Origin: Squalus acanthias | Taxonomy: Eukaryota | DNA length: 64,000 bases | NCBI GenBank assembly: GCA_030390025.1 | Contig: CM059432.1 | Coordinates: 74,774,001-74,838,000 of the forward strand | Direction of reading: 5' to 3' | Part shown: in pieces, positions 1 to 21,484 of the stretch | Position numbering within the stretch: position 1 is the first letter of the stretch | Layout: each line of letters begins with the position of its first letter | Position numbers and translations under genes: made by a program | Notes under the pieces: generated by a model | The model's input: only the letters and a program-made list of their open reading frames with translations | What the model was told of the DNA's origin: nothing | The model's database searches: none

Positions 1-3000
1 CAGGACAGGGGATCAATACAAGGGATCAGGACAAGGGATCAGAATAAGGGATCAGGAGAAGGGATCAATACAAGGGATCAAGACAATGGATTCATAGAAG
101 GGATCAATACCAGTGATCAGTACAAGAGATCAATAGAAAGAATCAATACAAGGGATCAGTAGAAGGGATTAATAGAAGGAATCAATACAAGGGATCAATA
201 CAAGGGATCAGGACAGGGGATCAATACAAGGGATCAGAACAACGGATCAATCCATAGAACAGTACAAGGGATCAAAACAAGTTATCAATAAAAGGGATCA
301 GTTCAAGGGACTAATACAAGGGATCAGGACAGGGGATCAATACAAGGGATCAGGACAAGGGATCAGAATAAGGGATCAGGAGAAGGGATCAATACAAGGG
401 ATCAAGACAATGGATTCATAGAAGGGATCAATACCAGTGATCAGTACAAGAGATCAATAGAAAGAATCAATACAAGGGATCAGTAGAAGGGATTAATAGA
501 AGGAATCAATACAAGGGATCAATACAAGGGATCAGGACAGGGGATCAATACAAGGGATCAGAACAACGGATCAATCCATAGAACAGTACAAGGGATCAAA
601 ACAAGTTATCAATAAAATGGATCCGTTCAAGGGACTAATACAAGGGATCAGGACAGGGGATCAATACAAGGGATCAGGACAAGGGATCAGAATAAGGGAT
701 CAGGAGAAGGGATCAATACAAGGGATCAAGACAATGGATTAATAGAAGGGATCAATACCAGTGATCAGTACAAGAGATCAATAGAAAGAATCAATACAAG
801 GGATCAGTAGAAGGGAATAATAGAAGGAATCAATACAAGGAATCAATACAAGGGATCAGGACAGGGGATCAATACAAGGGATCAGGACAAGGGATCAATA
901 CATAGAACAGTACAAGGGATCAGTACAAGGGATCAATACAAGTGATCAATACAAGGGATCAATACATGGGATCAATTCAAGGGATCAATAAAAAGGGATC
1001 AAAACAAGTGATCAAGACAGAGGATTAATACAAGGGATTAATAGAAGGGATAAATAAAAGGGGTCAGTAGAAGGGATTAGTAGAAGGAATCAATACAAGG
1101 GATCAAGACAATGGATTAATAGAAGGGATCAATACAAAGGATCAATAGAAAGGATATATAAATTGGATCAGGACAGGGGATCAGGACAAGGGATCAGGTC
1201 AAGGGATCAAGACAAAGGATCAATACAAGGGATCAGTACAAGGGATCAAGAAGGGATCAATAAAAAGAACAATTACAAGGGATCAGGACAGGGGATAAGG
1301 ACAAGGGATCAATATAATGGATAAATAGAAGGGATCAATACAAGGGATCAGGACAGGGGATCAGGACAAGGGATCAGGTCAAGGGATCAAGACAAAGGAT
1401 CAATACAAGGGATCAGTACAAGGGATCAAGAAGGGATCAATAAAAAGAACAATTACAAGGGATCAGGACAGGGGATAAGGACAAGGGATCAATATAATGG
1501 ATTAATAGAAGGGATCAATACAAGGGACCAGGACAGGGGATCAGGACAAGAGATCAGGACAAGGGATCAATACAAGGGATCAATAGAAGGGATCAATAGA
1601 AGGGATCAATACAAGGGATCAATACAAGGGATCAATTGAAGGGATCAGTACAAGGGATCAATACAGGGGATCAATACAAGGGATTAATAGAAGGGATAAA
1701 TACAAGGGATCAATACAAGGGATCAATAGAAGGGATAAATACAAGTGATCAGGACAGAGGATCAGGACAAGGGTCAGGACAAGGGATCAATACAAGGGAT
1801 CAATAGAAGGGATAAATACAAGGGATCAGGAAAGGGGATCAGGACAAGGGATCAGGAGAAGGGATCAATACAAGGGATCAGTACAGGGGATCAATACAAG
1901 GGATTAATACAAGGGATCAGAACAAGGGATCAATACATGGAACAGTACAAGGGATCATTACAAGGAATTAATAGAAGGGATCATTATAAGGGATCAGTAC
2001 AAGAGATCATTAGAAGGGATCAATACAAGGGATCAGTACAAGGGATAAATACAAGGGATCAATACAAGGAATCGATAAAAATGGTTCAATACAAGTGATC
2101 AGTACAAGCGATCAATACAAGGGATCAATAGAACGGATAAATACAAGGGAGCAGGACAGGGGATCAGGACAAGGGTTCAGGACAAGGGATCAATACAAGG
2201 GATCAAGACAATGAATTAATAAAAGGATCAATACAAGGGATCAATACAAGGGATCAGTACAAGGGATCAATAGAAGGAATCAATGCAAGGGATTAATAGA
2301 ATGGATCAATACAAGGGATCAGTACAAGGAATGAATACAAGGGATCAGGACAGGGGATCAATACAAGGGATGAGAACAAGGGATCAATAAAAGTGATCAA
2401 TAGAATGGATAAACACAAGGGATCAGGACAGGTGATCAAAATAGGGGATCAGGAGTAGGGATCAACACAAGGGATCAAGACAATGGATTAATAGAAGGGA
2501 TCAGTACAAGAGATCAATAGCAAGAATCAATACAAGGGATCAGTACAAGGGATTAATAGAAGGAATCAATACAAGGAATCAATACAAGGGATCAGGACAG
2601 GGGATCAATACAAGGGATCAGAACAAGGGATCAATACATAGAACAGTACAACGGATCAGTACAAGGGATCAATACAAGTGATCAATACAATGGATCAATA
2701 CACGGGATCAATACAAGGGATCAATAAAAAGGGATCAAAACAAGTGATCAAGACAGAGGATTAATACAAGGGATTAATAGAAGGGATAAATAAAAGGGGT
2801 CAGTAGAAGGGATTAATAGAAGGAATCAATACAAGGGATCAAGACAATGGATTAATAGAAGGGATCAATACAAAGGATCAATAGAAAGGATATATACAAG
2901 GGATCAGGACAGGGGATCAGGACAAGGGATCAGGTCAAGGGATCAAGACAAAGGAGCAATACAAGGGATCAGTACAAGGGATCAAGAAGGGATCAATAAA

Positions 3001-5979
3001 AAGAACAATTACAAGGGATCAGGACCGGGGATAAGGACAAGGGATCAATATAATGGATTAATAGAAGGGATCAATACAAGGGACCAGAACAGGGGATCAG
3101 GACAAGAGATCAGGACAAGGGATCAATACAAGGGATCAATACAAGGGATCAATAGAAGGGATCAATACAAGGGATCAATACAAGGGATCAATTGAAGGGA
3201 TCAATATAAGGGATCAATACAAGGGATCAATACAAGGGATCAATACAATGGATTAATAGAAGGGATCAATATAAAGGATCAATAGAAGGGATAAATAGAA
3301 GGGATCAGAACAGGGGATTAGGACAAGGGATCAGGACAAGGGATCAATACAAGGGATCAGGACAAGGGATCAATACAAGGGATCAAGACAAGGGATCAAT
3401 ACAAGAGATCAATAAAAAGGGATCAATACAAGTGATCTGTACAAGGGATCAGTTCAAGAGATCAATACAAGGGATCAATAAAAAGGGATCAGTACAAGGG
3501 ATCAGTACAAGGGATCAGTTCAAGGGACTAATACAAGGGATCAATCTATGGGATCAATACAAGGGATCAGTACAAGGGGATCAACATAACGGGTCAATAG
3601 AAGGGATCAATACAAGGGATCAATACAAGGTATCATTAGAAGAGAACAATAAAAGGGATCAATATGAGTGATCAATTCAAGGGATCAGTACAAGGGATCA
3701 ATAGAAGGGATAAATACAAGGGATCAGGACAGGGGTTCAGGAGAAGGAATCAGGACAAGGGATCAATACAAGGGATAACTACAAGGGATCAATACAATGG
3801 ATCAATACAAGGGATCAATACAAGGGATTAATAGAAGGGATAACTACAAGGGATCAATACAAGGGGTCAGTAAAAGGGATCAGTACATGGGATCAATACA
3901 AGGGACCAATACAAGGGATTAATAGAAGGGATCATTAGAAGGGATCAGTACAAGAGATCAATACAAGGGATCAATACCAGGGATCAATACAAGGGATCAG
4001 TACAAGTGATCAATACAAGGGATCAATACAAGGGATCAATACACGGGATCAATACAAGAGATTAATAGAAGGGATAAATACAAGGGATCAGGACAGGGGA
4101 TCAGGATAAGGGACCAGGACACGGGATCAATACAAGGGATAAATACAATGGATTAATAGAATGGATCAATACAAGCGATCAGTACAAGGGATCAGTTCAA
4201 GGGATTAATAGAAGGAATCAATACAAGGGATCAATACAAGGGATCAGGACAGGGGATCAATACAAGGGATCAGAACAACGGATCAATCCATAGAACAGTA
4301 CAAGGGATCAAAACAAGTTATCAATACAAGGGATCAGTTCAAGGGACTAATACAAGGGATCAGGACAGGGGATCAATACAAGGGATCAGGACAAGGGATC
4401 AGAATAAGGGATCAGGAGAAGGGATCAATACAAGGGATCAAGACAATGGATTAATAGAAGGGATCAATACCAGTGATCAGTACAAGAGATCAATAGAAAG
4501 AATCAATACACGGGACCAATAGAAGGGATTAATAGAAGGAATCAATACAAGGGATCAATACAAGGGATCAGGACAGGGGATCAATACAAGGGATCAGAAC
4601 AACGGATCAATCCATCGAACAGTACAAGGGATCAAAACAAGTTATCAATACAAGGGATCAGTTCAAGGGACTAATACAAGGGATCAGGACAGGGGATCAA
4701 TACAAGGGATCAGGACAAGGGATCAGAATAAGGGATCAGGAGAAGGGATCAATACAAGGGATCAAGACAATGGATTAATAGAAGGGATCAATACCAGTGA
4801 TCAGTACAAGAGATCAATAGAAAGAATCAATACAAGGGATCAGTAGAAGGGATTAATAGAAGGAATCAATACAAGGGATCAATACAAGGGATCAGGACAG
4901 GGGATCAATACAAGGGATCAGAACAACGGATCAATCCATAGAACAGTACAAGGTATCAAAACAAGTTATCAATACAAGGGATCAGTTCAAGGGACTAATA
5001 CAAGGGATCAGGACAGGGGATCAATACAAGGGATCAGGACAAGGGATCAGAATAAGGGATCAGGAGAAGTGATCAATACAAGGGATCAAGACAATGGATT
5101 AATAGAAGGGATCAATACCAGTGATCAGTACAAGAGATCAATAGAAAGAATCAATACAAGGGATCAGTAGAAGGGATTAATAGAAGGAATCAATACAAGG
5201 AATCAATACAAGGGATCAGTACAGGGGATCAATACAAGGGATCAGAACAAGGGATCAATCCATAGAACAGTACAAGGGATCAGTACAAGGGATCAATACA
5301 AGTGATCAATACAAGGGATCAATACACGGGATCAATACAAGGGATCAATAACAAGGGATCAAAGCAAGTGATCAAGACAGAGGATTAATACAAGGGATTA
5401 ATAGAAGGGATAAATAAAAGGGGTCAGTAGAAGGGATTAATAGAAGGAATCAATACAAGGGATCAAGACAATGGATTAATAGAAGGGATCAATACAAAGG
5501 ATCAATAGAAAGGATATATACAAGGGATCAGGACAGGGGATCAGGACAAGGGATCAGGTCAAGGGATCAAGAAGGGATCAATAAAAAGAACAATTACAAG
5601 GGATCAGGACAGGGGATAAGGACAAGGGATCAATATAATGGATTAATAGAAGGGATCAATACAAGGGACCAGGACAGGGGATCAGGACAAGAGATCAGGA
5701 CAAGGGATCAATACAAGGGATCAATACAAGGGATCAATAGAAGAGATCAATACAAGGGATCAATACAAGGGATCAATTGAAGGGATAAATATAAGGGATC
5801 AATACAAGGGATCAATACAAGGGATCAATACAATGGATTAATAGAAGGGATCAATACAAAGGATCAATAGAAAGGATATATACAAGGGATCAGGACAGGG
5901 GATCAGGACAAGGGATCAGGTCAAGGGATCAAGACAAAGGATCAATACAAGGGATCAATAAAAAGGGATCAATACAAGT
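1..5979 (+). repeat. 13-bp satellite array (GGGATCAATACAA and variants), block 1
   Basis: Continuous head-to-tail ~13-bp monomers, with variants GGGATCAGGACAG, GGGATTAATAGAA and GGGATCAGTACAA. The + strand is purine-rich. Confidence 0.98.
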
Positions 5980-6725
5980 GAAAAGGGGAAGTGCAACAAG
6001 ACCTGGTTGTCCTTGTGCTCCAGTCGCTGAAGGTAAGCATTCACGTGCAGCAGGCGGTTAAGAAGGCAAATGGTATGTTGGCCTTCATAGCGAGAGGATT
6101 CGAGTACAGGAGCAAGGATGTCTTGCTGCAGTTGTACAGGGCCTTGGTGAGACCACACCTGGAGTATTGTGTGCAGTTTTGGTCGCCTTACCTGAGGAAG
6201 GATGTTCTTGCCATGGAGGGAGTGCAGCGAAGATTCACCAGACTGATATCTGGGATGGCAGGAATGACGTATGAAGAGAGATTGGATCAATTAGGCTTAT
6301 ATTCGCGAGAGTTTAGAAGAATGAGAGGGGATCTCATTGAAACTTATAAAATTCTAACAGGACTGGACAGACTAGATGCAGGAAGGATGTTCCCGATGGC
6401 GGGGGAGTCCAGAACCAGGGGTCACAGTCTAAGGATAAGGGGTAAGCCATTTAGGACGGAGATGAGGAGGAATTTCTTCACCCAGAGAGTGGTGAACCTG
6501 TGGAATTCTCTACCACAGAAGGCAGTTGAGGCCAATTCATTAAATATATTCAAGAAGGAGTTAGATATATTTCTTAAGGCTAAAGGGATCAAGGGATATG
6601 GGGAGAAAGCAGGGACAGGGTACTGAATTTGGATGATCAGCCATGATCTCATTAAATGGTGGAACAGGCTCGAGGGGCTGAATGGCCTACTCCTGCTCCT
6701 ATCTTCTATGCTTCTATGTTTCTAT
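5980..6725 (+). mobile_element. 5'-truncated CR1-clade LINE (ORF2 3' end, 3'UTR and (TTTCTATG)-like tail)
   Basis: Encodes CR1 ORF2 C-terminal motifs (LYRALVRPHLEYCVQFWSP, RRNFFTQRVVNLWNSLP). Ends in CTTCTATG CTTCTATG TTTCTAT. Closely similar to 38021-38767. Confidence 0.96.
5991..6626 (+). pseudogene. CR1 ORF2 C-terminal fragment (lacks endonuclease and RT core)
   Basis: 211-aa open frame that matches the end of the ORF2 in the long LINE. It has no native start. Confidence 0.9.
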
Positions 6726-9700
6726 CACTACAAGGGAATAGTTCAAGAGATCAATACAAAGGATCAATAAAAAGGGAATGATACAAGTGATCAGTACAAG
6801 GGATCAGTTCAAGGGACTAATACAAGGGATCAATACAAGGGATCAATACAAGGGATCAATGCAAGGGATTAATAGAAGGGATTAATAGAAGGGATCAATA
6901 CAAGGTATCAGTAGAAGGGGATCAGTACAAGGGATCAATACAAGGGATCAATAAATGTGATCAATTCAAGGGATCAATAGAAGGGATCCATACAACAGAT
7001 CAACAGAAGAGATCAATACAAGTTATCATTAGAAGAGAACAATAAAAGGGATCAATACGAGTGATCAATTCAAGGGATCAGTACAAGGGATCAATATAAT
7101 TGATCAATAGAATGGATAAACACAAGGGATCAGGCCAGAGGATAAGCACAATGGATCAGGACAACGGATCAAATCAAGGGATCAGTACAAGGGATCAATA
7201 CAAGTGATCACTACAAGGATCAATACAAGGGATCAATACAAAGGATCAATACAAGGGATCAATAAAAAGGGATCAATACAAGTGATCAGTACAAGGGATC
7301 AGTACAAGGGACAAATACAAGGGATCAATCTAAGGGATCAATCCAAGGGTTTAGTACAAGGGAATCAGTGCAAGGGATCAGTAAAAGGGATCAATACTAA
7401 CGATCAGGACAAGGGATCAATACAAGGGATCCATATAAGGGATCAGTACAAGGGATCAGTGCAATATATCAGAACAAGGGATCAATACAATTGACCAATA
7501 GAAGGGATCAATACAAGGGATCAACACGAGTGATCAATACAAGGGATCAGGACAGGGGATGAGCTAAATGGATCAGTACAGCGGATCAATAGAAAGGTTC
7601 AATACAAGGGTTCAGTACAAGGGATCAATACAAGATATCAGTACAAGAGATCAGGAAAGGGAATCAATACAAGGGATCAGAACAAGGGATCAATACAAGG
7701 GATTAATAGAAGGGATCAGTACAAGAGATCATTAGAAGGGATCAATACAAGGGATCAATACAAGGGATTAATAGAATGGATAAATACAAGGGATCAGAAC
7801 AGGGGATCAGGACAGGGGACCAGGATAAGGGATCAGGAGAAGCGATCAATACAAGTTATCAAGACAATGGATTAATAGAAGGAATCAGTACAGGGGATTA
7901 ATAGAAGGAATCAATACAAGGGATCAGTACAAGGGATCAGGACAGGGGATCAATACAAGGGATCAATACAAGGGATCAATACAAGGGATCAATACAAGGG
8001 ATCAATAAAAGGGATTCATAGAAGGGATAAATACAAGGGATCAGGACAGGGGATCAGGACAAGGGTCAGGACAAGGGATCAATACAAGGGATCAATACAA
8101 GGGATCAATACAAGGGATCAATAAAAAGGGGTCAATACAAGTGATCAGTACAAGGGATCAGTTCAAGATATCAATACAAGGGATCAGGACAGGGGTTGAG
8201 GACAATGAATCAGGACAGTGGATCAAGAGAAGTCTCAATACAAGGGTTCAGTACAAAGGATCAATACAAGGGATCAATAGAAGGGGTCAATAGAAGGGGT
8301 AAATACAATGGATTAATAGAAGGGATCAATATAAAGGTTCAATAGAAGGGATAAATACAAGGGATCAGGACAGGGGATCAGGACAAGGGATCAGGACAAG
8401 GGATCAATACAAGGGATCAGGAGAATGGATTAATAGAAGGGATCAATATAAAGGTTCAATAGAAGGGATAAATACAAGGGATCAGGACAGGGGATCAGGA
8501 CAAGGGATCAATACAAGGGATCAGGACAAGGGATCAATACAAGGGATCAAGGCAAGGGATCAATACAAGGGATCAATAAAAAGGGATCAATACAAGAGAT
8601 CAGTATAAGGGATCAGTTCAAGAGATCAATACAAGGGATCAATAAAAAGAGATCAATACAAGTGATCATTACAAGGGGATCAATATAATGGGTCAATAGA
8701 AGGGATCAATACAAAGGATCATTAGAAGACAACAATAAAAGGGATCAATACAAGTGATCAATTCAAGGGATCAGTACAAGGGATCAAGAAGGGAGCAATA
8801 GAAGTGATAATTACAAGGGATCAGTGCAGGGGATCAGGACAGGGGATAAGGACAAGGGATCAATACAATGGATTAATAGAAGGGATCAATACAAGCTATC
8901 AATAAAAGGGATAAATACAAGGGATCAGGACAGGGGATTGGGAGAAGGAATCAGGACAAGGAATCAATACAAGGGATCAGTACAAGGGATCAATACAAGG
9001 GATCAATACAAGGGATCAATACAACGGATTAATAGAAGGGATAACTACAAGGGATCAATACAAGGGGTCAGTAAAAGGAATCAGTACAAGGGATCATTAC
9101 AAGGGATTAATAGAAGGGATCATTACAAGGGACCAGTACAAGAGATCAATAGAAGGGATCAATACAAGGGATCAATATAAGGGATTAATACAAGGGATCA
9201 GTACAGGAGATCAGGACAAGGGATCAGGACAAGGGATCAATACAAGGGATCAATACAAGGAATCAATAAAAAGGGTTCAATACAAGTGATCAGTAGAAGG
9301 GATAAGTTCAAAGGACTAATACAAGGGATCAATCTAAGGGATCAATACAAAGGAGCAGTACAAGGGGATCAATATAAGGGATCAATACATGGGATCAATA
9401 CAAGGAATCATTAGAAGAGAACAATAAAAGGGATCAATACAAGTGATCAGTACAAGGGATCAAGAAGGGCTCAATAGAAGGGATAAATACAAGGGTTCAG
9501 GACAGGGGATAAGGACAAGGGATCAATACAATAGATTAATAGAAGGGATCAATACAAGGTATCAATACAGGGGATCAGTACAAGGGATCAGTACAAGGGA
9601 TCAATACAAGGGATCAATACAAGGGATTAATAGAAGGGATAAATACAAAGTATCAGGACAGGTGATCAGAATAAGGGATCAGGAGAAGGGATCAATACAA

Positions 9701-10463
9701 GGGATCAAGACAATGGATTAATAAAAGGATCAATACAAGGGATCAATACAAGAGATCAGTAGAAAGAATCAATACAAGGGATCAGTACAAGGGATTAATA
9801 GAATGAATCAATACATAGAACAGTACAAGGGATCAGTACAAGGGATCAGTTCAAGAGATCAATACAAGGGATCAATAAAAAGGGATCAATACAAGTGATC
9901 AGAACAAGGGATCAGTTCAAGGGACTAATACAAGGGATCAATCTAAGGGATCAATACAAGGGAGCAGTACAAGGGGATCAATATAACGAATCAATAGAAG
10001 GGATCAATACAAGATATCATTAGAGGAGAACAATAAAAGGGATCAATACAAGTGATCAATTCAAGGGATCAGTACCAGGGATCAAGAAGGGATCAATAGA
10101 AGGGATACATACAAGGGATCAGGACAGGGGATCAGGACAAGGGATCAGAACAAGGGATCAATACAAGGGATCAATACAAGGGAATAATAGAAGGGATCAA
10201 TAAAAGGGATCAGTACAAGGGATCAATACAAGGAATCAATACAAGGGATTAATAGAATGGATCAATACAAGGGGTCAGTACAGGGAATCAATACAAGGGA
10301 TCAGAACAAGGGATCAATAAAAGTGTTCAATATAATGGATAAATACAAGGGATCAGGACAGGTGATCAGAATAAGGGATCAGGAGTAGGGATCAATAAAA
10401 GGGATCAGTACAAGGGATCAGTACAAGGGATCAATACAAGGGATCAATACAAGGGATTATTAG
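6726..10463 (+). repeat. 13-bp satellite array, block 2
   Basis: Same monomer family as block 1. Confidence 0.98.
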
Positions 10464-10516
10464 TGTTGTGGAGAAATTATTTCACTCAATTCTGTATCAT
10501 AGGTACAAGCAAACAG

Positions 10517-10522
10517 TTTATT
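10517..10522 (-). terminator. Poly(A) signal AATAAA in the 3' LTR
   Basis: TTTATT on the + strand, about 90 bp downstream (minus sense) of the LTR TATA box. Confidence 0.7.
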
Positions 10523-10859
10523 AATGTTCAAAGATCTTTGGGAGAAGATGTCATAAACCCCTTGGCTTAGTGACTACGTCTTCTCGAAATTACAGCGGTA
10601 TGAGATTCCTTTTATACATTAATCATCCAATCACATAGCCTTAGCAACAGATTTCTAATTATAATATGTACGTTAGGTTCAAATGTTACTTCCCTACCGA
10701 AACTACAAGCATAGCGGTTTGCCTCAGATTTGTCCAACTCGGACTAGCCAGTCTAGCCAGTCATGCGGTGATTGTGTAATCGTTGTACTATTATTGCCTT
10801 GGTGGCCTCCTTGGTGGGCCTCAATGTTGACCACAGACATTACTCATCGCACTGTCAGC

Positions 10860-10948
10860 GAAACCATTTTCTATTTACGAATTTACTTCTTACGGCACAT
10901 TTTTAAGAAACCATTTTCTATTTACGAATTTACTTCTTACGGCACATT
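10860..10948. repeat. 47-bp-period direct repeat in LTR U3 (also at ~21361-21449)
   Basis: GAAACCATTTTCTATTTACGAATTTACTTCTTACGGCACATT occurs twice in each LTR. Confidence 0.9.
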
Positions 10949-10998
10949 CTTTAATTTTACATTTCTTATTAAAATCCTATAATAAATTTACTCCTACA

Positions 10999-11012
10999 AT
11001 TCCTCCTGTTGG
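10999..11012 (-). other. Polypurine-tract-like segment
   Basis: The minus strand reads CCAACAGGAGGAAT directly before the TG of the 3' LTR. It is short and imperfect. Confidence 0.65.
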
Positions 11013-11140
11013 TCCCTGATCAAATCTCCTTTGTGACAGGGAACCAGCATCATACGGATTTCTGGTAATGTAAGTAGATATGTTTACATTCCAGGAGCTC
11101 ACAGTCCATCAGTCAGACTGTGACATTCTTGTATAGGGAC

Positions 11141-11997
11141 TCATATCCATACATCTCTCTCTCTGGGTGTCACTTGATTAACCATCATGACACTTACAGC
11201 AGGCCGTGACTTTTGAGCGCAACAACATTTTAACAATAGGACCAGACCATACATCATTAATATTATAACAAAGAACAAAATCAATCCTTGTACTACTGAT
11301 GTCCCGAGTGATCCCAACCATCCAGTTGCCCAGCCCCAAAGGGTGGATGCCGGAGGTTGTTTTAATTTCTTTACTTCCTCCTGTATGTGTTCTGCCAAAT
11401 TAGTTATATTTTCTGAACTGTCAGGAATGTATGTGCAGCACTCTGTCCCAATCAATGCACACGTTCCCCTTTTTCTGCTAGGAGGTAATCAAGTGCCATT
11501 CGGTTCTGTAGCGTCACTGTCCTTATCGCTACCATCTCGGCGTTAATGTCTATTAGAGATTCTGCTGTATCATTCCCAACCTGTTCTAAAACCTCTGCCA
11601 ACAACCGTATCTCTTTAATAGCTCTCGCGACTCCGTATGGGGGTAGATAGATCGCGAAGTATCTTTCAGCCTCATTAATTTCTCGTTTATAAGATAGGCT
11701 GGGTGTTCCTTGAGTGATGTACAAAGGGTACGACATACCCCAATGAAGTAAGTGTTATTATAGGCTTCATACCTACTCCATATGTTATTCATTATCATGA
11801 TTTTACCCTTCCATGGCCCCCCACTGGTCATGTTTGGAGTTGTACCGAGATTCCACGTCCCATACGTGAAGGTTGCACCACCGTACCCACTCCTGGTCAC
11901 CTGTAATTCATATTTCTGCTCGCATTTACTCCAACCCAATGTTAAGCAAATCAGAATGATGCATGATGCCCAGACCAATCCCCTTACTCAAATTCAA
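11141..11997 (-). pseudogene. env: Retroviral envelope, gamma-type TM, frameshifted with a strongly shortened SU
   Basis: Signal-like VWASCIILICLTLG, a YKR cleavage-like site, ISD LQNRMALDYLLAEKG, C-ALIGTE-CC (CX6CC) and a TM helix LILFFVIILMMYGLVLLL. Split over ORFs 11586-11978, 11452-11736 and 11141-11455. Confidence 0.92.
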
Positions 11998-13879
11998 TTC
12001 ATTGTTCCGGTGTTCCAATTCTGCCCCGCCTGGGGTATCCTCTGTTTCTTCTATCTTTCCTGATGTTACCCCGCCTGGGGTCTCCTCTATATTGCTTTGG
12101 ATCTTCTCTTTCGGTGCTCAATTAATTTGTTGGTGCTGGTTAGTCATAGGCATGAGTACCCAATTGGCTTATGTATCTTACTACATAGGTTACATATATC
12201 AAATACACTATAAATTCAGTCTTACAATCATTTCAAGCGACATTACAGTTTAACATCTAATCAACAAATCATGGACTTAAAAGATTCTCCAGATCTCTCT
12301 TGAGTCATATCCATCTTGTGGATAATTCTTAATAAACATGATTTCTCCTTAGACCTCAATTATCCCAATCCAGATTCCATGTAACTCTCCACTTCAACTT
12401 CAATTTCAATCCCTCTAACAGGTACCAGTGTATTTAACTCTATTCTGATTGTTTCATTAATTAGATAGTTTCTCGATGGAGTATGTGTCAATGCTTTAAA
12501 GGTTATCTCGCTCTCCTGAACCACATCAACCACCTCATGTTTTGCTGTTGTAGCATGTCTGAGACCCGTTCTTCAGTGCAGATTCACCATACATTCCCGG
12601 ATGGCAACTGCCTCACATGTAACAAATCACATTTGCACACTCATATCGGTATCTCCATCATGCCACATGTGCCTTTCTCAGGCCTTCAGGTATCTTATCA
12701 AAAGATTGTCTGGAGGTCTTTGTTCATCTTCCTCTGCATGGTCCCGATGTCTTTGGTAGTGGCCAGGCTATCAAATTCAGCTTTCTTAAAAAGTTCATTA
12801 TAGGCAGGGACACAAATGTCTCCAAGAGAAAGCTATCAATTTACTATTCTTAGCTACTCTTTCCTGACTTTCACTAGAAAGTTTGGAAAATTCTCAATTG
12901 GTGGTGTAATTCTCCTGTTTCTATCTCACCCTCAATCACTTCCTTTCTCCATTTTACACATCCTATTAATTACCATTCATATCTCATTCATGAGCCCTGG
13001 AGGAACTTTACTGTCCAGTAAAATATTTAAGATTGAAAACATAGATCAAACATTGTCACTTGGTCCAAGTTATTAACACCTTTTATTTATCATTACTTTA
13101 GAGGATCTTTTATTTTCCCAAAAGTAACCCAATATATAGTGCCTGAGTTCATTTTGTCATTTCAAAATTATCCTGAAATCCAAACAGCAGTACTGTTGAA
13201 CTGACAGGTTTTGTCAATGTTCAATTTCATTTCTATAACTTAAACAGCCGTCAGTGGAAAGGGTTAACTCCTTTGCAGGGTTTTTTTTTAAGAAGGCGGA
13301 GCGAAACATTGTCAGACGCACGCAATTGCGTCATTTTACGTAAATTAAAAAAAAACTCTCCTGATCGGAAAAGACAGTTGCGTTTCCACACTTTAACTGA
13401 ACACGAACAGAACAGATAAAACAAAACAAACTAGTACATGCTTGTAGAAAACCATAAATTACATCATATTTCTTATTGTCCTTTCTTCAGATGCCTTTCC
13501 AAAATACTGTAAAAACATTGGGGTAGAAATTAGGTCGCGCCCCATTTGGGGCGCAAATATCGTCCGGACGCAAATATTAGCGCCTGGCGCTAATTATCGG
13601 CACTGACAGGAAACTTCACTTTTACCGCCCCGGGAGGTGAGTGGAGCGCTAAATTAGGCGCTGCACACCTCTCTTAAGGCGCAAAGGCCAAGGAGTGAGG
13701 CGCTAACTCAGCGCACGAGCGCAGCGCAGCTGCTGCCAGTTAGCGAGGGAACACAGACACAATGGCGCCGGACACTTCTTAAAGCGGGGGGGGGGGCCAC
13801 TTGCTCCCCAGCCACACCCTGCTCATTGCAGCCTTGAATCTCAGCCTGGAGAGACCTGTAATCCATTTTGCTGCCAAGC

Positions 13880-15756
13880 ATGGAGAGGGTGAGAGAACGC
13901 GCTCATCGCTTCACCGAGCGGGCCTTGGATGCTCTGGTTGGCGCAGTGGAGCGCAGACGATGCATGCTGTTCCCGGAGAGTGGCAGGAGGCCTTTGCCAC
14001 GTGAGTTCAGAAGAGTGTGGAGGGAGGTGGCTCAGAGCGTCTCCTCCAGGAGCATGGTGCCCAGGACCCATGTTCAATGCCGCAAAAAGTTCAACGACCT
14101 CACTCGGGTCGTCAGGGTGAGTGGCTTTTTCTCAATACCTCTCCATCCCTCCATCTCAACCTCACTCTATGGCCAGAGGGTCTTAAAACCCCAATGCACA
14201 ACACTCATCCAACACCTATGGCCCTTTCATCAAACACACACACACATTCCACACTTTGCATACAGTAAGGGCTATTCACCTATGGGAGGCACATCAGGCA
14301 AGACCATGGCTGCATACAGTAAGGGCTATTCACCTATGGGAGGCACATCAGGCAAGACCATGGCTGCATACAGTAAGGGCTATTCACCTATGGGAGGCAC
14401 ATCAGGCAAGACCATGGCTGTATATTTACTCAGATGCTGTCCTTTTTCTTGCAGGCTAAGCTGGCTCATAATCGGAGACAGCAGCAACGGATGGGTGGAG
14501 GGCGGCTTCAGCTGCAACCCCTCAGCGATCTGGAGGAGCGCGTCCACAGGATTGTGGCAAGCCGGGTGATCGGTCCCGTCGCCACTGGAGACGCCGACCC
14601 CGTTGTGGACAGCAATGGTAAGGTCATCACCTTTTTGTCCTCTGTCCTTCCACTTGTCCCTCACAATACCAGCCTTTGACACTTTCAATCCAACTTGCTA
14701 ACTCGCTGCACTTATTCCTCCCTTACTGCCACCCTGTCCTCACGCTAAAGCCACTCTTGTACCTCCCTGCTTTCAGATGGTGATTCACCAGCTGAGGAGA
14801 CGGGCCCTGAAGCTGCCACTGGGAGTGATGCTGCAGCTGAGGAGGAAGAGGAAGCCGGAGCATCAGTGCCACCCTCTCCCGAGGAAGCCCATGGCCACAC
14901 TGGGAACACGCCTTCCCCGGAGGGGAGCAGGGGGGAAGGGGCTGATGATGGTGAAGCTCCAGGACCCAGCGGGCTGCAGCAACGCCATGGGGGGGGTAGG
15001 GAAGAACGGGGGCCTTCTCCCCAGAGGGAGAGTATGCCAGACACTCCTACTGCAATGGACGCAGAGGAGGAGCGGCTGATTGCAGAAATGAACAGCCAGG
15101 CGGTGGGCATGCACACTGAGCTCATGGGTGCAGTGGGAAGGGTGCCCGAATGCATTGAATCACTGGCAAGGAGTGTGGAGCACTTCGCTGTAGCACAGGC
15201 GGATGCCACACTAAAGCTTAGTGCTGCAATTCAGTCACTGGCTGCCAGGAACCCATCTGAGACTGCTCTCATGCAGACTCAGATTGAGGCCACGCGAGCA
15301 CTGACTGCTGCCATCCTCGATGGTTCGTGCACATGTCCCCGGGGCTGTCACCGCGCCGCAGCAGGCCAGCAATCTGTTCTCCGGCAAATTGCTCCGGATG
15401 CTGAAGTGCTGCCCCGTAGGAGTGCCAGTGTGTCGGGCGAGCAGGGAGTTGCTGTCCTCTCTCACGATGACAGCATTCCTGCTGCCAACACTGTCACTTC
15501 TCCACTGCACTTGCCACCGCCTGTAGGACAGACTGCTGCCGCCCATGCAGAGTTGGTGCAGTCTGCAGCCGGGCCCTCCAGGCCCAGAAGTGGTCGAGGC
15601 CGTCCTTCAGGGGCATCTGCAGTGTCAGGGTCTGACGAGCAGCAGCCTTCCACCAGCCTTGCTGCAGCCACTGAGGTCCCATTACGGAGGAGCAGTAGGG
15701 TTAGAAGGGGGGAAGTGCGCAAGGGAAGGAGATCACCCTCGAAGGGCAAAAAGTAG
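13880..15756 (+). CDS. Harbinger Myb/SANT-like DNA-binding protein, predicted 3 exons (13880-14116, 14455-14617, 14777-15756), 459 aa
   Basis: Exon 1 encodes RFTERALDALV...WREVA...RTHVQCRKKFNDL (trihelix/MADF-type Myb). Splice sites are AGG|GTGAGT, TTGCAG|GCT, ATG|GTAAGG and TTTCAG|AT. Phases 0 and 1 join into one open frame of 1380 nt. The C-terminus is basic and NLS-like. Confidence 0.85.
14257..14424. repeat. 54-bp minisatellite, 3 copies, in Myb gene intron 1
   Basis: TGCATACAGTAAGGGCTATTCACCTATGGGAGGCACATCAGGCAAGACCATGGC repeated perfectly three times. Confidence 0.95.
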
Positions 15757-15883
15757 GAGGTGTGCCAAAATGCTGGTCATTTTTTTATTAAAGGCCGAGG
15801 TTCATGGTCCAACTTTTGTTTAGTGTTTTGGACATTATCTCCAGGTTGTGAGAACCAGTTATGTTATTGACTGTTTTTTTGTG

Positions 15884-15939
15884 TTTATTTCTATGAGTTT
15901 GTCATGAGGAATTGACACACACAGAGTTTGTAAAATAAA
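15884..15939. terminator. Candidate poly(A) signals for the two convergent Harbinger genes
   Basis: AATAAA on + at 15934-15939 and TTTATT (AATAAA on -) at 15884-15889, between the two stop codons. Confidence 0.5.
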
Positions 15940-16050
15940 TAAGTTTCTGTATTCAAAATATACATGGCTGGTGGTTGGAATTATTGGTGCCTTGGCCGGC
16001 TTAGGGGTTGCGTGCTGGGTTGATTAGTGTTTGTAGCAATGGCAGGGGCC

Positions 16051-17211
16051 CTAGAAGCGGCTTGCTATTAGTCGTTGACGGACGGCCCTTGCAGTTTGAC
16101 CATTGTGAGCCGCCCTCCCGCCTTGGTGCTGCTGATGATCATCGTCCTCGTCCTCTTCCTCCTCTTCCTCCTCCTCCTCTGGTGGTGCTACAAGGCCTGG
16201 TGGCATTGGCTGGGTCCTGAGGATTGCCATGTTGTGCAACATGCAGCACACGACTACGAAGTTCGAAACTTGCTCAGGCGAGTACTGCAGGGCTCCTCCG
16301 GAATGGTCCAGACAGCGGAACCGTTGTTTCAGCACGCCGATTGTGCGCTCAATAATGCTCCTGGTTGCTTGATGGCTTTCATTGTACCGCAGCTCAGCAG
16401 GGGTGTTTGGCGTACGGAGCGGTGTCATCAGCCAGGTGCTCAATGCGTACCCCTTGTCCCCCAGAAGCCAACCAACTGGCTGATGCGGTGCCTCGAAAAG
16501 TTCTGCCACAGTAGTCTGGTGCAGGATGAAGGCATCGTGGCAGCTGCCCGGATAGTGGGCATTGACAGCGAGTATCACCTGTCTGTGGTCACAGACCAAC
16601 TGCACATTCAAGGAATGGAACCCCTTTCTATTCCTGAATTCCTCTGCATTCTCTCGCGGGGCACGCAAAGCCACATGCGTGCAGTCAATGGCGCCCTGCA
16701 CCATGGGGAAGTCCGCTACCCTCGCAAAGCCCAGAGCACGGTCACGCTGCTTGTCTGGGGTCATAGGGAAAGAGATGAAGTCTCGTCTCCTTCTGAAGAG
16801 GGCATTGGTGACCTGCCGGATGCAGCGATGCACCGCAAACTGGGAGATATTGGCGAGGTCCCCAACAGCAGCTTGGAATGAGCCAGTGGCGTAGAAGTTC
16901 AAAGCCACTGTGACCTTCACTGCCACCGACAGAGATGTCCTGGACCTCAGCTGAGGCTGCAGATCTGGCTGCAGCAGGTGGCAGAGCTCAGTGACCACCT
17001 CCTTGCTGAATCGCAGCCTTCGCAAACACAGCTCCTCGGACATATGGATGTAGGAGAGCTGTTCACGATATACCCTGGGAGGGTAAGCTCTCCTGTACAT
17101 GCGCCTGATGGCCCTCCTCCGTCTGGCCATCATTGCCACTCTCTGTCTGCGTCTCACTATCCTCCGATTCAGCTGGAGCAGGACGACGCCCCCAATCATT
17201 GCAGCCCCCAT
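16051..17211 (-). CDS. Harbinger DDE transposase (HARBI1-family), 386 aa, uninterrupted
   Basis: Catalytic motifs GAIDCTHV, LGDKGY and IERTIGVLKQRF, plus NRKGFHSLNVQLVCD, PGSCHDAFIL and CCMLHN. N-terminal HTH-like region and an acidic tail. Confidence 0.96.
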   Translation of the reverse strand: MGAAMIGGVVLLQLNRRIVRRRQRVAMMARRRRAIRRMYRRAYPPRVYREQLSYIHMSEELCLRRLRFSKEVVTELCHLLQPDLQPQLRSRTSLSVAVKVTVALNFYATGSFQAAVGDLANISQFAVHRCIRQVTNALFRRRRDFISFPMTPDKQRDRALGFARVADFPMVQGAIDCTHVALRAPRENAEEFRNRKGFHSLNVQLVCDHRQVILAVNAHYPGSCHDAFILHQTTVAELFEAPHQPVGWLLGDKGYALSTWLMTPLRTPNTPAELRYNESHQATRSIIERTIGVLKQRFRCLDHSGGALQYSPEQVSNFVVVCCMLHNMAILRTQPMPPGLVAPPEEEEEEEEEDEDDDHQQHQGGRAAHNGQTARAVRQRLIASRF

Positions 17212-17315
17212 ATTCTCTTTGCCAGAAAAGTAATGAGGTACAGCAACTAAAGTAGCAACAAAGTTAGGATGAACTAGGCCAAACTACCTCACAAAGCGTT
17301 GAGTCAATGTAGAAG

Positions 17316-17353
17316 TCTCTCTCTCTCTCTCTCCGAATCTCTCTCTCTCTCTC
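17316..17353. repeat. (CT)n microsatellite upstream of the transposase start
   Basis: Two CT runs separated by CGAAT. A (GA)n counterpart is present in the MITE at ~35329-35344. Confidence 0.85.
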
Positions 17354-17949
17354 AGAACGAGTGGTGCATAAATGTCGACCACAGAAAAAGACAGGAAGAG
17401 GCCCCCTTTAAATAGCGCCCCCCCCAGCCCCACACCGATTGATAACGTTCCAGTCTTCCGGTCGTTGGAAGCGCCAGGCGGTAAGGCAGGGGGCGCCACT
17501 CAATTTCCGCTCCGGGGCGCCCCAAGGGCGTTGCACCATGGAATGACGTCACAATCTGCGCGCGCAGGTGGTCGCAGCGGTAAGTTTTAGCGCCGCCGCA
17601 CAATCTCAAGTTAAGTTCTCGAGCGGCGCAAACAGCGCTGCGCCCGGGCGTTAGCGGCTTAACGCCCCATTAGCGCCCTCTTAAGGCGCTAACGGGAGGC
17701 GCAACCAAGTGAATTTTCCCCCCATTGAATATAACTGGAGAAAAATTAGTTTTTCACATTTAAGCAAATCAAATCAAACTGCTTTGGAAGATTTCACCAT
17801 AGCAACCGCGACTCCAAGGTTAAATCTTAGACCGAAACTTAATCTTTGTTAAACAAACTTTTTGTTGTTCTTCTCAGTTTTACACACCAGCTTAACTTAA
17901 ATTGTAGTTCAAAGTTTTTTTCAATTCTTGGGGCACAATCTATTGCAGC

Positions 17950-18425
17950 CACACATCGTGGCATTGCCTTCGCTACTGGATCCCTCTTTAACTAACCGTT
18001 GAATCGGCTCTGCTTTCCCTGCAAAGTCTGATATAAAATTCCTGCAGTAGTTAAATAGTCCCAACATTTTCCTCACTCCCCGGACGGTCTCTGGCCTTGG
18101 CATGTCTTTATGGCTGCCTTTTTGGGTTCAATTTAAAGCCAGCTTTCTTAAGTGTAATGCTCCCATATGTCCTTTGGCATCCTCTGATGCAATCATTATG
18201 TCATCGACATATTGAAGTAGGGCACTCTGATATTTTGATAGGTTTAACTCGTCTAAGGCTTGACTCAGTACATGGTGGAATATATTTGGATTATTGTGGA
18301 ACCCCTGCGGGACCCTGGTTCATGTATACTGTCTATCCCTGACAGTAAAGGCGAATTTCCCTTGTGATTCCTCTGCCAATGGTATGGATCAGAACCCGTT
18401 CCGTGTCCAAGACTGTAAATATTTT
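17950..18425 (-). pseudogene. pol: Retroviral reverse transcriptase fragments
   Basis: Manual minus-strand translation gives FTVLD..NGF*SIPLAEESQGKFAFTV, RVPQGFHNNPNIFH, LLQYVDDIMIAS (YVDD at 18200-18211) and MPRPETVRGVRKMLGLFNYCRNFI. Stops and deletions are present. Confidence 0.92.
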
Positions 18426-19159
18426 AAAGTCTGGTTTCAGACCATTAAATATCTTATTCAATGTGATCTACACAAATTTACACCAACCAAAATTTCACCG
18501 TGGCCACAATGAAAGTCCGGTTTTAATAGGTTAATTCACCTCTAACTCCAATTCAATCCAGATCAGTTTTTTTAAACTAACCAGTATCACTTGGAAAAGA
18601 AAAAAACCACACTAACAAAGAAACAATTACTCATGCCTTGTAAACATTCAAATTCATTTTCTTCCAGGCACATTGGCAACTGTGACTTCAAGGCTGAAGC
18701 TTATCTTTTGTAAAACAAGTAACAAACTTAAAACAACACACTTGTCCGTCATTCAAGACAGGTCTCCAAAGGGTTAAACAGCTTTTAGCTCTCTGTACAA
18801 AAGAGTGGGTGGAGCTAAAACAAAACTGACTTCTGTTTTTTTTTAAAACAGACTTTCAGACAAAGGAAATACTATAACTTCTTAAACATTCACAGTCAGG
18901 AAAACTTTCTCCCTTTAACACACACTTCCACACAAACTTAGATCCCAGCATTCCTTTTAAGATTCCTTTCACTCAACAAATCTTGTGTTTATTTGTCTCG
19001 GCACAGACATTAATAACTTCCATGTCGGTAAAACTTTAAATTTCTCTCTTTTTTCTTTTTACATAGGTGTCTCAGCAGCTTTCCTGGCTTTCCAAATCCT
19101 TTTTTTTTTGTCTAAGCTGAGTTTTCAGATTGGTTAGCCTGCAAATTAGATCTTTTCCT

Positions 19160-19306
19160 TCTTTATCTTTGGTTTGTCGGACGGGGCAAATCAGTTAAAG
19201 ATACTGATGCTCCTGTATCAACTAGCATTTCACACGATTGGCCCCCTAATAATGCTGCAATGTAGACTCAGTTATCCGAGCCTCCTTTTACTGGGGCCAC
19301 CTCCCG
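19160..19306 (-). pseudogene. pro: Retroviral aspartic protease, N-terminal fragment
   Basis: Manual translation gives VYIAALLGGQSCEMLVDTGASVSLT (DTG at 19211-19219), in frame with the Gag stop. One internal TGA. Confidence 0.88.
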
Positions 19307-20350
19307 TCATTGACTCTTCCCCTTTGACTGGAGGTACTCCATAAAGTCCCTTCTATTCTCCGGACTGAGATAAGCGCCCTGTGTCTGGTCCACGTCTCCT
19401 TTCTTCTGCCAGCAGTTGTGACTCTGGTGTCCTAGCTTACCACAATAGTCACATCCCCCTTTCTTTCCACTCCTGCAATCCTTCGCCATATGTCCCACTT
19501 TTCCACAAGTATAACAGCTCCCCTGAATCCTCTTGTACGGTTGCGATGCACCCCCCTGCTGCTACCTCTTACTGATTGAATTTTTCCCCAATTTATAGTA
19601 GGACCCCCAAGCGCTGTTTCTACTGCGGTCTTAAAGGGTCCATATGCTGCCCATTGCACCGCCCGTCCGGCACTCGGAGGTACTACATCTGCCCATTCTC
19701 CATCCTGCATGCCTGCAGCGGGGTTTACATTTCTCCATTTGTCGGCTGGGCATGATGCCCTAACTAACTGATGGATATCCTTACAGTGTAAATCATGGAT
19801 GTCCCACATTCCCTCTAGATTTCTCCAGAACTCGGCGTTCTGACTACGGGGTTTGAGGGTTCCCAAATCTTTGAGAACAGCTTGTTTTTCAAGAGGCGTG
19901 AAAGCCCGATATCGACTGTTGGCTGCCGCTGGATATCGTATTACGGGTGCCATCAGCACTACCGGAACGTCCCCTTCGTTTTCGATTGGGGCCGAGGCAT
20001 ACGGTGGGGGCCTTTCTTTATCCTCACCATTTCTATTCCCTCTATTTGTCAATTCCATCCGTTCTATTATACTTTCTAATTCGGCTATTCTCTTTCCTTG
20101 TTCTTCCATCTTACTGGTTTGTGTCTTAACCCCTTTTGTTATCATTATCAACTGATGTATTAAAATTACTCCTGCCTTTCTAGTTTTCTTTTGTTTCTGC
20201 TTCTCCCACCACTCCCGTTGCACCATTAGGTTTCCTAGTGGATCCCATCCATCCTTCTTCATTTATCAATAAAACCCTTTTGGTCCTCGGCGTAGAGCCG
20301 ACTCATGGATCCTGGCGGGCCCCAATCTGGTTCCTCGCCCGCCGCCATAA
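19307..20350 (-). pseudogene. gag: Retroviral Gag, frameshifted and partly deleted, with two CCHC zinc knuckles
   Basis: ORF 19432-20262 has a PPPY late-domain motif and a CA-like region. In a shifted frame are CYTCGKVGHMAKDC and CDYCGKLGHQSHNC, ending at TGA 19307-19309. The exact start is uncertain. Confidence 0.88.
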
Positions 20351-20935
20351 TGTATTATTCTTTGTCACTAGTTTACCGCGTTCCGGTCCACCCTAGCAAC
20401 TCGTTTTCAGAGGTTCTGCCTATCGTCCACCACTTGTATGATGGTGGCCTGACTTGTAACTATCTTGCTCTCAGAGGTGAAGGTTTCACTTGTCTCAGAG
20501 GTGATGTTTCACTTGTAGCCATTAATACATTATCACAATTCTTCACGTAATACCATCCAATAGATCCCGCAACGCAACGCAACGCAGCAGAGAGGTTCTT
20601 ACAAATTCTTTGTCTGTCTCGGATTCCCAACTAACTCTGGCCGTCACGTGGGGTCCAATCGCCCTCTTAATTTCGGCTCAGCATGGGTCCTCGAGACATT
20701 TACATTCCGAAATAACACATCAGGCTTCAATCATCTTAACCACTATTAATACATTACAAACACTTCATGTGCCACCTAGGTTTTAATAAACTGTTTCCCT
20801 ACCGTTACAGACACCAGATTCGTTTGATACTGTGTTGCCGAACACACCCCCCTTCCGAGTGACCCAATTTCTGGGCGGTCAAAGATTTGACTACTTGCCC
20901 CGTTCACTGGTACAGGCGGTTTTCAGCTCCGAAGT

Positions 20936-20953
20936 ATCCTGTTCGTGACGCCA
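20936..20953 (-). other. Primer binding site complementary to tRNA-Ser (probably CGA)
   Basis: Minus strand TGGCGTCACGAACAGGAT, 2 nt from the LTR end. The + strand ATCCTGTTCGTGACG-CCA matches my recollection of a vertebrate tRNA-Ser(CGA) 3' end (not searched). Confidence 0.8.
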
Positions 20954-20955
20954 TT

Positions 20956-21484
20956 TGTTGTGGAGAAATTATTTCACTCCATTCTGTATCATAGGTACAA
21001 GCAAACAGTTTATTAATGTTCAAAGATCTTTGGGAGAAGATGTCATAAACCCCTTGGCTTAGTGACTACGTCTTCTCGAAATTACAGCGGTATGAGATTC
21101 CTTTTATACATTAATCATCCAATCACATAGCCTTAGCAACAGATTTCTAATTAAAATATGTGCGTTAGGTTCAAATGTTACTTCCCTACCGAAACTACAA
21201 GCATAGCGGTTTGCCTCACATTTGTCCAACTCGGACTAGCCGGTCTAGCCAGTCTAGCCAGTCATGCGGTGATTGTGTAATCGTTGTACTATTATTGCCT
21301 TGGTGGCCTCCTTGGTGGGCCTCAATGTTGAACACAGACATTACTCATTGCACTGTCAGCGAAACCATTTTCTATTTACGAATTTACTTCTGACGGCACA
21401 TTTTTAAGAAACCATTTTCTATTTACGAATTTACTTCTTACAGCACATTCTTTAATTTTACATTTCTTATTAAAATCCTATAAT
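20956..21484 (-). repeat. ERV 5' LTR (outer ~15 bp missing)
   Basis: Direct repeat of 10464-10983 with about 8 substitutions and one extra 9-bp unit. It lacks the terminal AAATTTACTCCTACA. Confidence 0.95.
21101..21125 (-). promoter_or_regulatory. LTR promoter: TATA box (TATAAAAG) and nearby CCAAT
   Basis: + strand CTTTTATACA at 21101-21110 followed by CCAAT. The same arrangement is in the other LTR at ~10609-10631. Confidence 0.7.

Follow-up and report, generated by a model that had tools for sequence, protein, structure and literature searches.

A 64,000-nucleotide stretch of the genome of Squalus acanthias (assembly GCA_030390025.1, contig CM059432.1, positions 74,774,001 to 74,838,000 of the forward strand; hereafter the window) contains, at window positions 13520 to 17723, a full-length DNA transposon of autonomous type that belongs to the PIF/Harbinger (PHIS) superfamily. 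It is probable that these 4,204 bp represent a structurally complete copy from an abundant elasmobranch family, that the copy transposed into one defective provirus within a satellite array some 5-15 million years (My) ago, as judged by a shark clock, and that it has drifted little since. A preliminary description of this DNA, made from its letters, had credited the element with all required parts, and this assessment holds: a transposase, a Myb/SANT partner, terminal inverted repeats (TIRs) and a target-site duplication (TSD) together constitute a complete two-component PIF/Harbinger, whose nearest listed relatives are chondrichthyan.

The element is bounded on both sides by the trinucleotide ATT, as had been stated, at 13517 to 13519 and 17724 to 17726 (both on the + strand). 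Immediately within lie TIRs of 12 nt at 13520 to 13531 (+), beginning GGGG, and at 17712 to 17723 (-); both had been correctly recognized, though they are imperfect and match at 9 of 12 positions. Four public runs were aligned to positions 12700 to 18500, namely X1 and X10, which we guess to be DNA, and X17 and X19, which we guess to be RNA, with three organism labels among them. A joint that skips 4,207 nt, equal to the element plus one 3-nt duplication, is present in three of these runs (two contigs of X1, and X17 and X19). It corresponds to a clean site with a single ATT, its sides are 21-28 letters long, and its five ambiguous letters are equally compatible with a 5-nt reading, C-ATT-G. 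Because contigs lacking exactly the element and one duplication exist, sister proviruses can be empty at the Harbinger site; a predominance of filled sisters, named earlier as a refuting outcome, did not appear in these runs. Together with a second transposon-free joint, the empty-site joint totals 168/168 of the flank-position depth in X17 and 733/808 in X19.

The window holds a second insertion of this type at 34959 to 35849 (- strand), an 891-bp non-autonomous relative resembling a miniature inverted-repeat transposable element (MITE), which is non-coding, inverted relative to the Harbinger, bounded by the same ends (approximately 82% identity at both) and flanked by a TTT duplication within a CR1-like long interspersed nuclear element (LINE). 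Both insertions are flanked by A-N-N-C|WWW|G-N-N-T (2/2; the bars enclose the duplication), while a looser pattern, A-N-N-Y/R-N-N-T, occurs at about 2% of positions. A third right-hand flank, from run X10, reads ATA and then GAGT, a half site with a presumed ATA duplication.

The subterminal regions of the element, at 13520 to 13770 on the left and 17470 to 17723 on the right, are rich in CpG (observed/expected ratios of 0.96 and 1.19 at the ends versus 0.43 and 0.57 within the genes) and contain four and three copies, respectively, of the heptamer GCGCTAA, a candidate Myb-binding site. These seven copies fall within 505 nt of end sequence and none falls in the 3,699 nt interior; 200 shuffles yielded a mean of 0.29 and a maximum of 2, the enrichment being descriptive because the motif was chosen from the same data. 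The right-hand region also includes the palindrome TGACGTCA at 17544 to 17551, and a TATA-like TATTTAAA, which may serve as a promoter, lies at 17407 to 17414 (-), some 200 nt upstream of the ATG that opens the transposase gene; both are retained in the MITE. The preliminary description was right about the CpG richness of the ends but not in taking their undecayed state as a sign of youth: the richness is a family trait and no marker of youth, because the MITE, at about 82% identity, shares 33 CpGs with the element ends.

Two convergent genes lie between these ends, and their poly(A) signals (AATAAA at 15934 on the + strand, and at 15889 and 15789 on the - strand) place both 3' ends in an overlap at 15784 to 15939. 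The transposase open reading frame (ORF; 16051 to 17211, - strand) extends for 386 aa from an ATG at 17211 to a stop at 16051 with no internal stop, matches the Pfam family DDE_Tnp_4 (PF13359, E=2.5e-39), carries the complete catalytic triad D176, D252 and E288 and ends in an acidic C-terminal tract, in full agreement with the uninterrupted DDE transposase and three acidic residues first described. A protein search returned 389 matches at E<=1e-20, and statements on closest relatives concern the 120 of these that were listed. The list is headed by shark and ray gene models annotated as 'putative nuclease HARBI1', with up to 66% identity; the best of them, from Pristiophorus japonicus and other elasmobranchs (61-66% identity), are automatic models, many of them partial, and none is close enough to represent the window family. 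A tree built from the window protein together with 45 matches picked from the 120 listed places the transposase beside seven sawshark models in one clade with support of 98/98. By alignment, D-D-E is kept in 53 of the 120 listed homologues; the transposase has D167, a position occupied by G in 91 of 116 homologues, and this D167 may be family-wide. A sequence search of the PDB with the transposase found no relative, the best match (E=0.02) being due to the acidic tract. By eye, a possible short intron in the 5' untranslated region, with a GT donor and a pyrimidine-rich AG acceptor, can be placed at 17212 to 17300 (-), just upstream of the transposase ATG; its junction is absent among the 15 of 57 joints listed.

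The partner gene, on the + strand, had been proposed as a convergent Myb/SANT gene of 459 codons with four canonical splice sites, and the proposal is upheld: exons at 13880 to 14116, 14455 to 14617 and 14777 to 15756 join into 459 codons across two GT-AG introns of 338 nt (14117 to 14454) and 159 nt (14618 to 14776). Exon 1 encodes a tri-helix domain (Myb_DNA-bind_5, PF13873, E=4.7e-9) and exon 3 a low-complexity sequence with a basic C-terminus and no Pfam match; a search with exon 1 among longer proteins gave one match among 171 candidates. This helper gene appears to be spliced, as judged by contigs for intron 2 and by homology for intron 1. A joint skipping exactly the 159 nt of intron 2, with sides of 19 and 29 letters and in agreement to the base with the predicted splice, occurs in both of the RNA-guess runs (X17 and X19, from different studies) and in neither of the DNA-guess runs (X1 and X10). 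Aligned to the protein P0007, the spliced product matches over 109 aa (E=3e-28) versus 75 aa for the unspliced product, whose match ends at the donor. The two predicted junctions thus fared differently: 14617/14777 is found in contigs of X17 and X19, and 14116/14455, absent from the joints listed, follows from homology. The exon-1 frame remains open across the whole of intron 1, to 14569; this read-through frame was rejected as the main Myb product because homology ends at the intron-1 donor. Intron 1 also contains 3.1 copies of a 54-nt unit, with 99% identity, at 14257 to 14424.

In run X1, 30,674 contigs align to positions 12700 to 18500, of which 6,848 are at least 99% alike, 11,082 are 95-99% alike and 12,744 are 90-95% alike, counts that include the provirus flanks and are inflated by short contigs in the highest class; the suggestion that all copies might prove diverged finds no support in these numbers. 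In X10, a run under a third organism label, transposon pieces are 99% alike at low depth, the provirus is almost absent and the depth ratio is about 25 versus about 17 in X1; contig depth is no measure of copy number. Trace host DNA would account for this pattern as readily as a real second host would, and we make no claim of horizontal transfer. Seven organism labels contain 47-90% of the sequence words. Between the window copy and six long X10 pieces, 14 of 2,189 letters differ (0.64%), a figure that excludes piece 16 (nine differences; it continues into MITE-type sequence) and piece 13 (14 differences; it overlaps a closer piece), and we infer that the six lie near the common sequence of the family.

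The two long terminal repeats (LTRs) of the host provirus show eight differences in 519 columns (1.54%; Poisson 95% range 0.67-3.04%) and, in addition, a single 9-nt indel, as the preliminary figure of about 1.5% had indicated. The resulting divergence per lineage, 0.77%, is about equal to the 0.64% between the copy and its family. According to PMC13100897, synonymous divergence (dS) separating the whale shark from the zebra shark amounts to 0.061-0.111 over about 50 My; on this clock the LTR pair is approximately 7-13 My old (range 3-25), and an age of 6-10 My (range 3-18) results for the copy. The earlier equation of 1.5% LTR divergence with a recent event is therefore not supported. The very low de novo mutation rate given for the epaulette shark, 7e-10 per generation (PMC10587355), leads to about 1e7 generations and is used solely as confirmation of a slow clock.

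These dates bear upon the possibility of present-day germ-line transposition by the family, with the window copy as a competent insertion of very recent origin, which we regard as unlikely. In its favour, both ORFs are open and the triad, ends and TSD of the window copy are intact, contigs of at least 99% likeness are numerous, the joint across intron 2 is present, some short pieces show only 0-1 differences (X19 piece 31, and X17 pieces 21 and 23), and the empty sites could also reflect an empty allele or the product of an excision. The copy, although whole, is not pristine, because three residues, found on comparison of 40 of 271 variant rows, set it apart from nearly all sister contigs. One is Myb 92, a CpG transition, where it differs from 93-100% of contig depth (the contigs and P0007 have T); at Myb 348 it differs from 100%; and at transposase 285, which lies three positions from the catalytic E, from 72-100%. 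The D167 of the window copy, which may be shared by the family, is a further departure from most homologues, and a divergence of 0.64% corresponds to millions of years in sharks. Near-identical sequence also appears under a second organism label, whose runs cover the provirus too, as would be expected if the family predates a species split.

It is far less probable still that an ancestral provirus had already received the Harbinger and was then multiplied with it as a passenger, by retroviral copying or satellite-driven segmental duplication, which would render the LTR date uninformative for the transposon. The location of the provirus in a long tandem array and the loss of one of its outer ends are compatible with such a history, as is the low depth (31) of the clean empty-site contigs of X1 relative to the flanks, in a run where the share of flank depth from empty-site joints cannot be judged; filled-junction contigs are not countable, which leaves room for a filled sub-lineage. 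Nevertheless, empty-site joints occur in all three of the runs that contain the provirus and make up nearly all of the flank depth in X17 and X19, and the poly(A) signals of the transposase gene share the sense strand of the provirus and would be expected to cut a genomic transcript short. A domesticated and immobile gene pair akin to HARBI1/NAIF1 is scarcely credible here: the open frames and the existence of ortholog-like HARBI1-type genes in sharks would suit it, but the locus has TIRs, a TSD, an empty site, a related MITE and a location within a provirus, retains the full triad, unlike most ortholog-like groups, and groups with diverse sawshark gene models instead of with those groups.

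Several considerations weigh against the reading that we prefer, that of a complete copy inserted millions of years ago and little altered since. The clock derives from synonymous positions in the coding sequences of two other shark species, the LTR differences may include effects of reverse transcription or recombination, and the Harbinger insertion may postdate integration of the provirus by far. All four runs consist of contigs, not reads; none is recorded as RNA, and X17 and X19 are the two that were aligned out of four runs guessed to be RNA. The sides of the joints (19-29 letters) fall below the 31-letter bridging threshold, the intron-1 joint is absent among the 15 of 57 joints listed (42 lie beyond these), and one X17 contig reads through the intron-1 donor site. 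Finally, the target motif is based on two full sites and one half site.

Characterised PIF/Harbingers, as described in PMC2836001 and PMC9179366, need both of their proteins, the Myb protein binding the ends and importing the transposase; their excision is usually clean, and their target reaches beyond the 3-nt duplication. By analogy with Harbinger3_DR of zebrafish and Ping/Pong of rice, the two convergent genes of the window element would be driven by promoters lying in each end, and the spliced Myb/SANT protein would bind the repeated subterminal heptamers and deliver the transposase to the nucleus and to the element ends. The DDE transposase would then excise the element and insert it at a palindromic A-N-N-C|WWW|G-N-N-T, duplicating 3 nt, and the same protein pair would have mobilised the shorter non-coding derivatives. 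Whether this machinery extends to the present is more doubtful: we entertain as a tentative possibility that some copies of the family are still transposing in the germ line of a cartilaginous fish, with a native protein pair that works unreconstructed and a C|WWW|G target that represents a further PHIS target group.

The assignment to PHIS follows from a DDE_Tnp_4/HARBI1-type transposase with an intact triad, a second ORF with Myb/SANT, TIRs that start with A or G and are mostly under 60 bp in the superfamily (12 nt and GGGG here), and a 3-bp duplication shown by the empty site (three of four runs, with short sides and an equal 5-nt reading). Its place among the target groups described by Han et al. 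2015 (PMC4482050) is less simple. Duplications of ATT, TTT and probably ATA do not agree with the TWA of PIF/Harbinger in the narrow sense or with the CWG of NuwaI. The element shares with NuwaII the conserved C and G beside the duplication (C|ATT|G and C|TTT|G, and the G after ATA in X10) and the ambiguity between 3 and 5 nt, but not the TNA core, which none of the three trinucleotides matches on either strand. The ANT of Pangu fits ATT, one of three sites, and neither TTT nor ATA, and the second ORF of Pangu is without known motif, unlike the Myb/SANT ORF found here. On the basis of three sites, the C|WWW|G target does not fit exactly any TSD group in that published account. In other respects the element resembles both NuwaII and NuwaI as described there, with two ORFs including Myb/SANT, TIRs starting GG or GGG and a length of about 4.2-4.7 kb. 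The Nuwa species lists consulted in PMC4482050 contain no cartilaginous fish; its family tables could include one, or a similar target.

Among vertebrate elements, published accounts of the reconstructed zebrafish Harbinger3_DR (PMC2836001, PMC3016246, PMC9179366) describe the same pairing of a DDE transposase gene with a Myb-like partner gene, and a 3-nt duplication within a longer palindromic target with adjoining C and G (zebrafish consensus AAACACCWGGTCTTT; PMC3016246). The duplications in the shark consist of A and T only, unlike the CWG core of Harbinger3_DR, and the window element is a native copy with open frames, whereas Harbinger3_DR, compared here through its published description, is a consensus. 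Harbinger-Snek of sea kraits, as presented in PMC8437027, is likewise an abundant vertebrate two-ORF Harbinger with non-autonomous derivatives. It has 269 potentially intact copies in L. colubrina, and RNA covers both ORFs of the intact L. laticaudata copy; activity is suggested, not shown. It was acquired by horizontal transfer, of which the analysis yielded no evidence for the window element, whose nearest listed relatives are chondrichthyan. Intact or expressed vertebrate Harbingers have also been published for newt (PMC5741667) and for teleosts, and across eukaryotes Han et al. list 88 PIF/Harbinger families in which both ORFs are intact (PMC4482050). The surprise implied by the preliminary description was too high, because hundreds of potentially intact vertebrate Harbingers have been published for sea kraits (PMC8437027). 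The window element adds a new family to a known superfamily and changes no concept.

The provirus that hosts the Harbinger lies on the - strand, with its 3' LTR at 10464 to 10998, its interior at 10999 to 20955 and its 5' LTR at 20956 to 21483. The gag-, pol- and env-like frames of the interior are all fragmented (the env-like reading was made by eye), Pfam matches to these fragments include zf-CCHC (E=4.7e-10) and RVT_1 (E=2.2e-8), and the Harbinger occupies the pol region. No proviral target duplication is visible because the right-hand (5') LTR is without its outer 16 nt, which are absent where a 13-nt satellite restarts, and so deletion or satellite recombination took the proviral end at 21483 together with its duplication. 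The window provirus has several single-base indels relative to most sister contigs and appears more decayed than the transposon it encloses. At 12700 to 13519 and 17727 to 18500, the sister proviral contigs include several variants with internal deletions, and coverage comes from both of the RNA-guess runs. Positions 1 to 10463 and 21484 to 64000 are mostly purine-rich satellite with a 13-nt unit and a strong strand skew, which hosts the provirus and LINE insertions. The MITE is inserted in the endonuclease start of the CR1-like LINE, which has a GDSL-esterase ORF1 and a reverse transcriptase, and by eye the LINE frame returns to register with one TTT; MITE-type junctions were found in runs X10, X17 and X19.

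The transposase homologues also include five fully supported HARBI1-type clades with 70-90% identity across shark or ray orders and, in the clusters examined, mostly one member per species (P0004/P0005; P0009/P0012; P0025/P0028/P0068; P0039/P0041; P0008/P0015/P0018/P0020/P0022/P0030/P0105). The catalytic E is missing in four of the five, and the fifth has other changes in conserved motifs. These clades look like chondrichthyan-specific domesticated Harbinger transposases, one of which could be true HARBI1; a narrow literature search found no title on such clades. In Scyliorhinus torazame, six HARBI1-type proteins of 481-484 aa fall in one 90% cluster (P0056), which suggests a separate multi-copy Harbinger family or a gene array.

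Harbingers of sharks and rays have barely been described. A 2022 survey, as represented in PMC9179366, found no Harbinger in elephant shark and called for the examination of other cartilaginous fish, and two shark genome papers that were consulted (PMC8455134, PMC12498223) name the superfamily once each, as a repeat class. The window copy offers a complete model whose boundaries were checked and which includes splice sites, the empty site and a target motif. It also carries a caution for such work: in slowly evolving sharks, a transposon that is intact and 99% identical to its relatives may be many millions of years old. In the literature searched, vertebrate Harbinger transposition assays concern the reconstructed zebrafish element only, and the window copy supplies a native protein pair ready for such an assay. 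Should native mobility and a target group of its own prove true, this family would constitute a naturally working vertebrate Harbinger.

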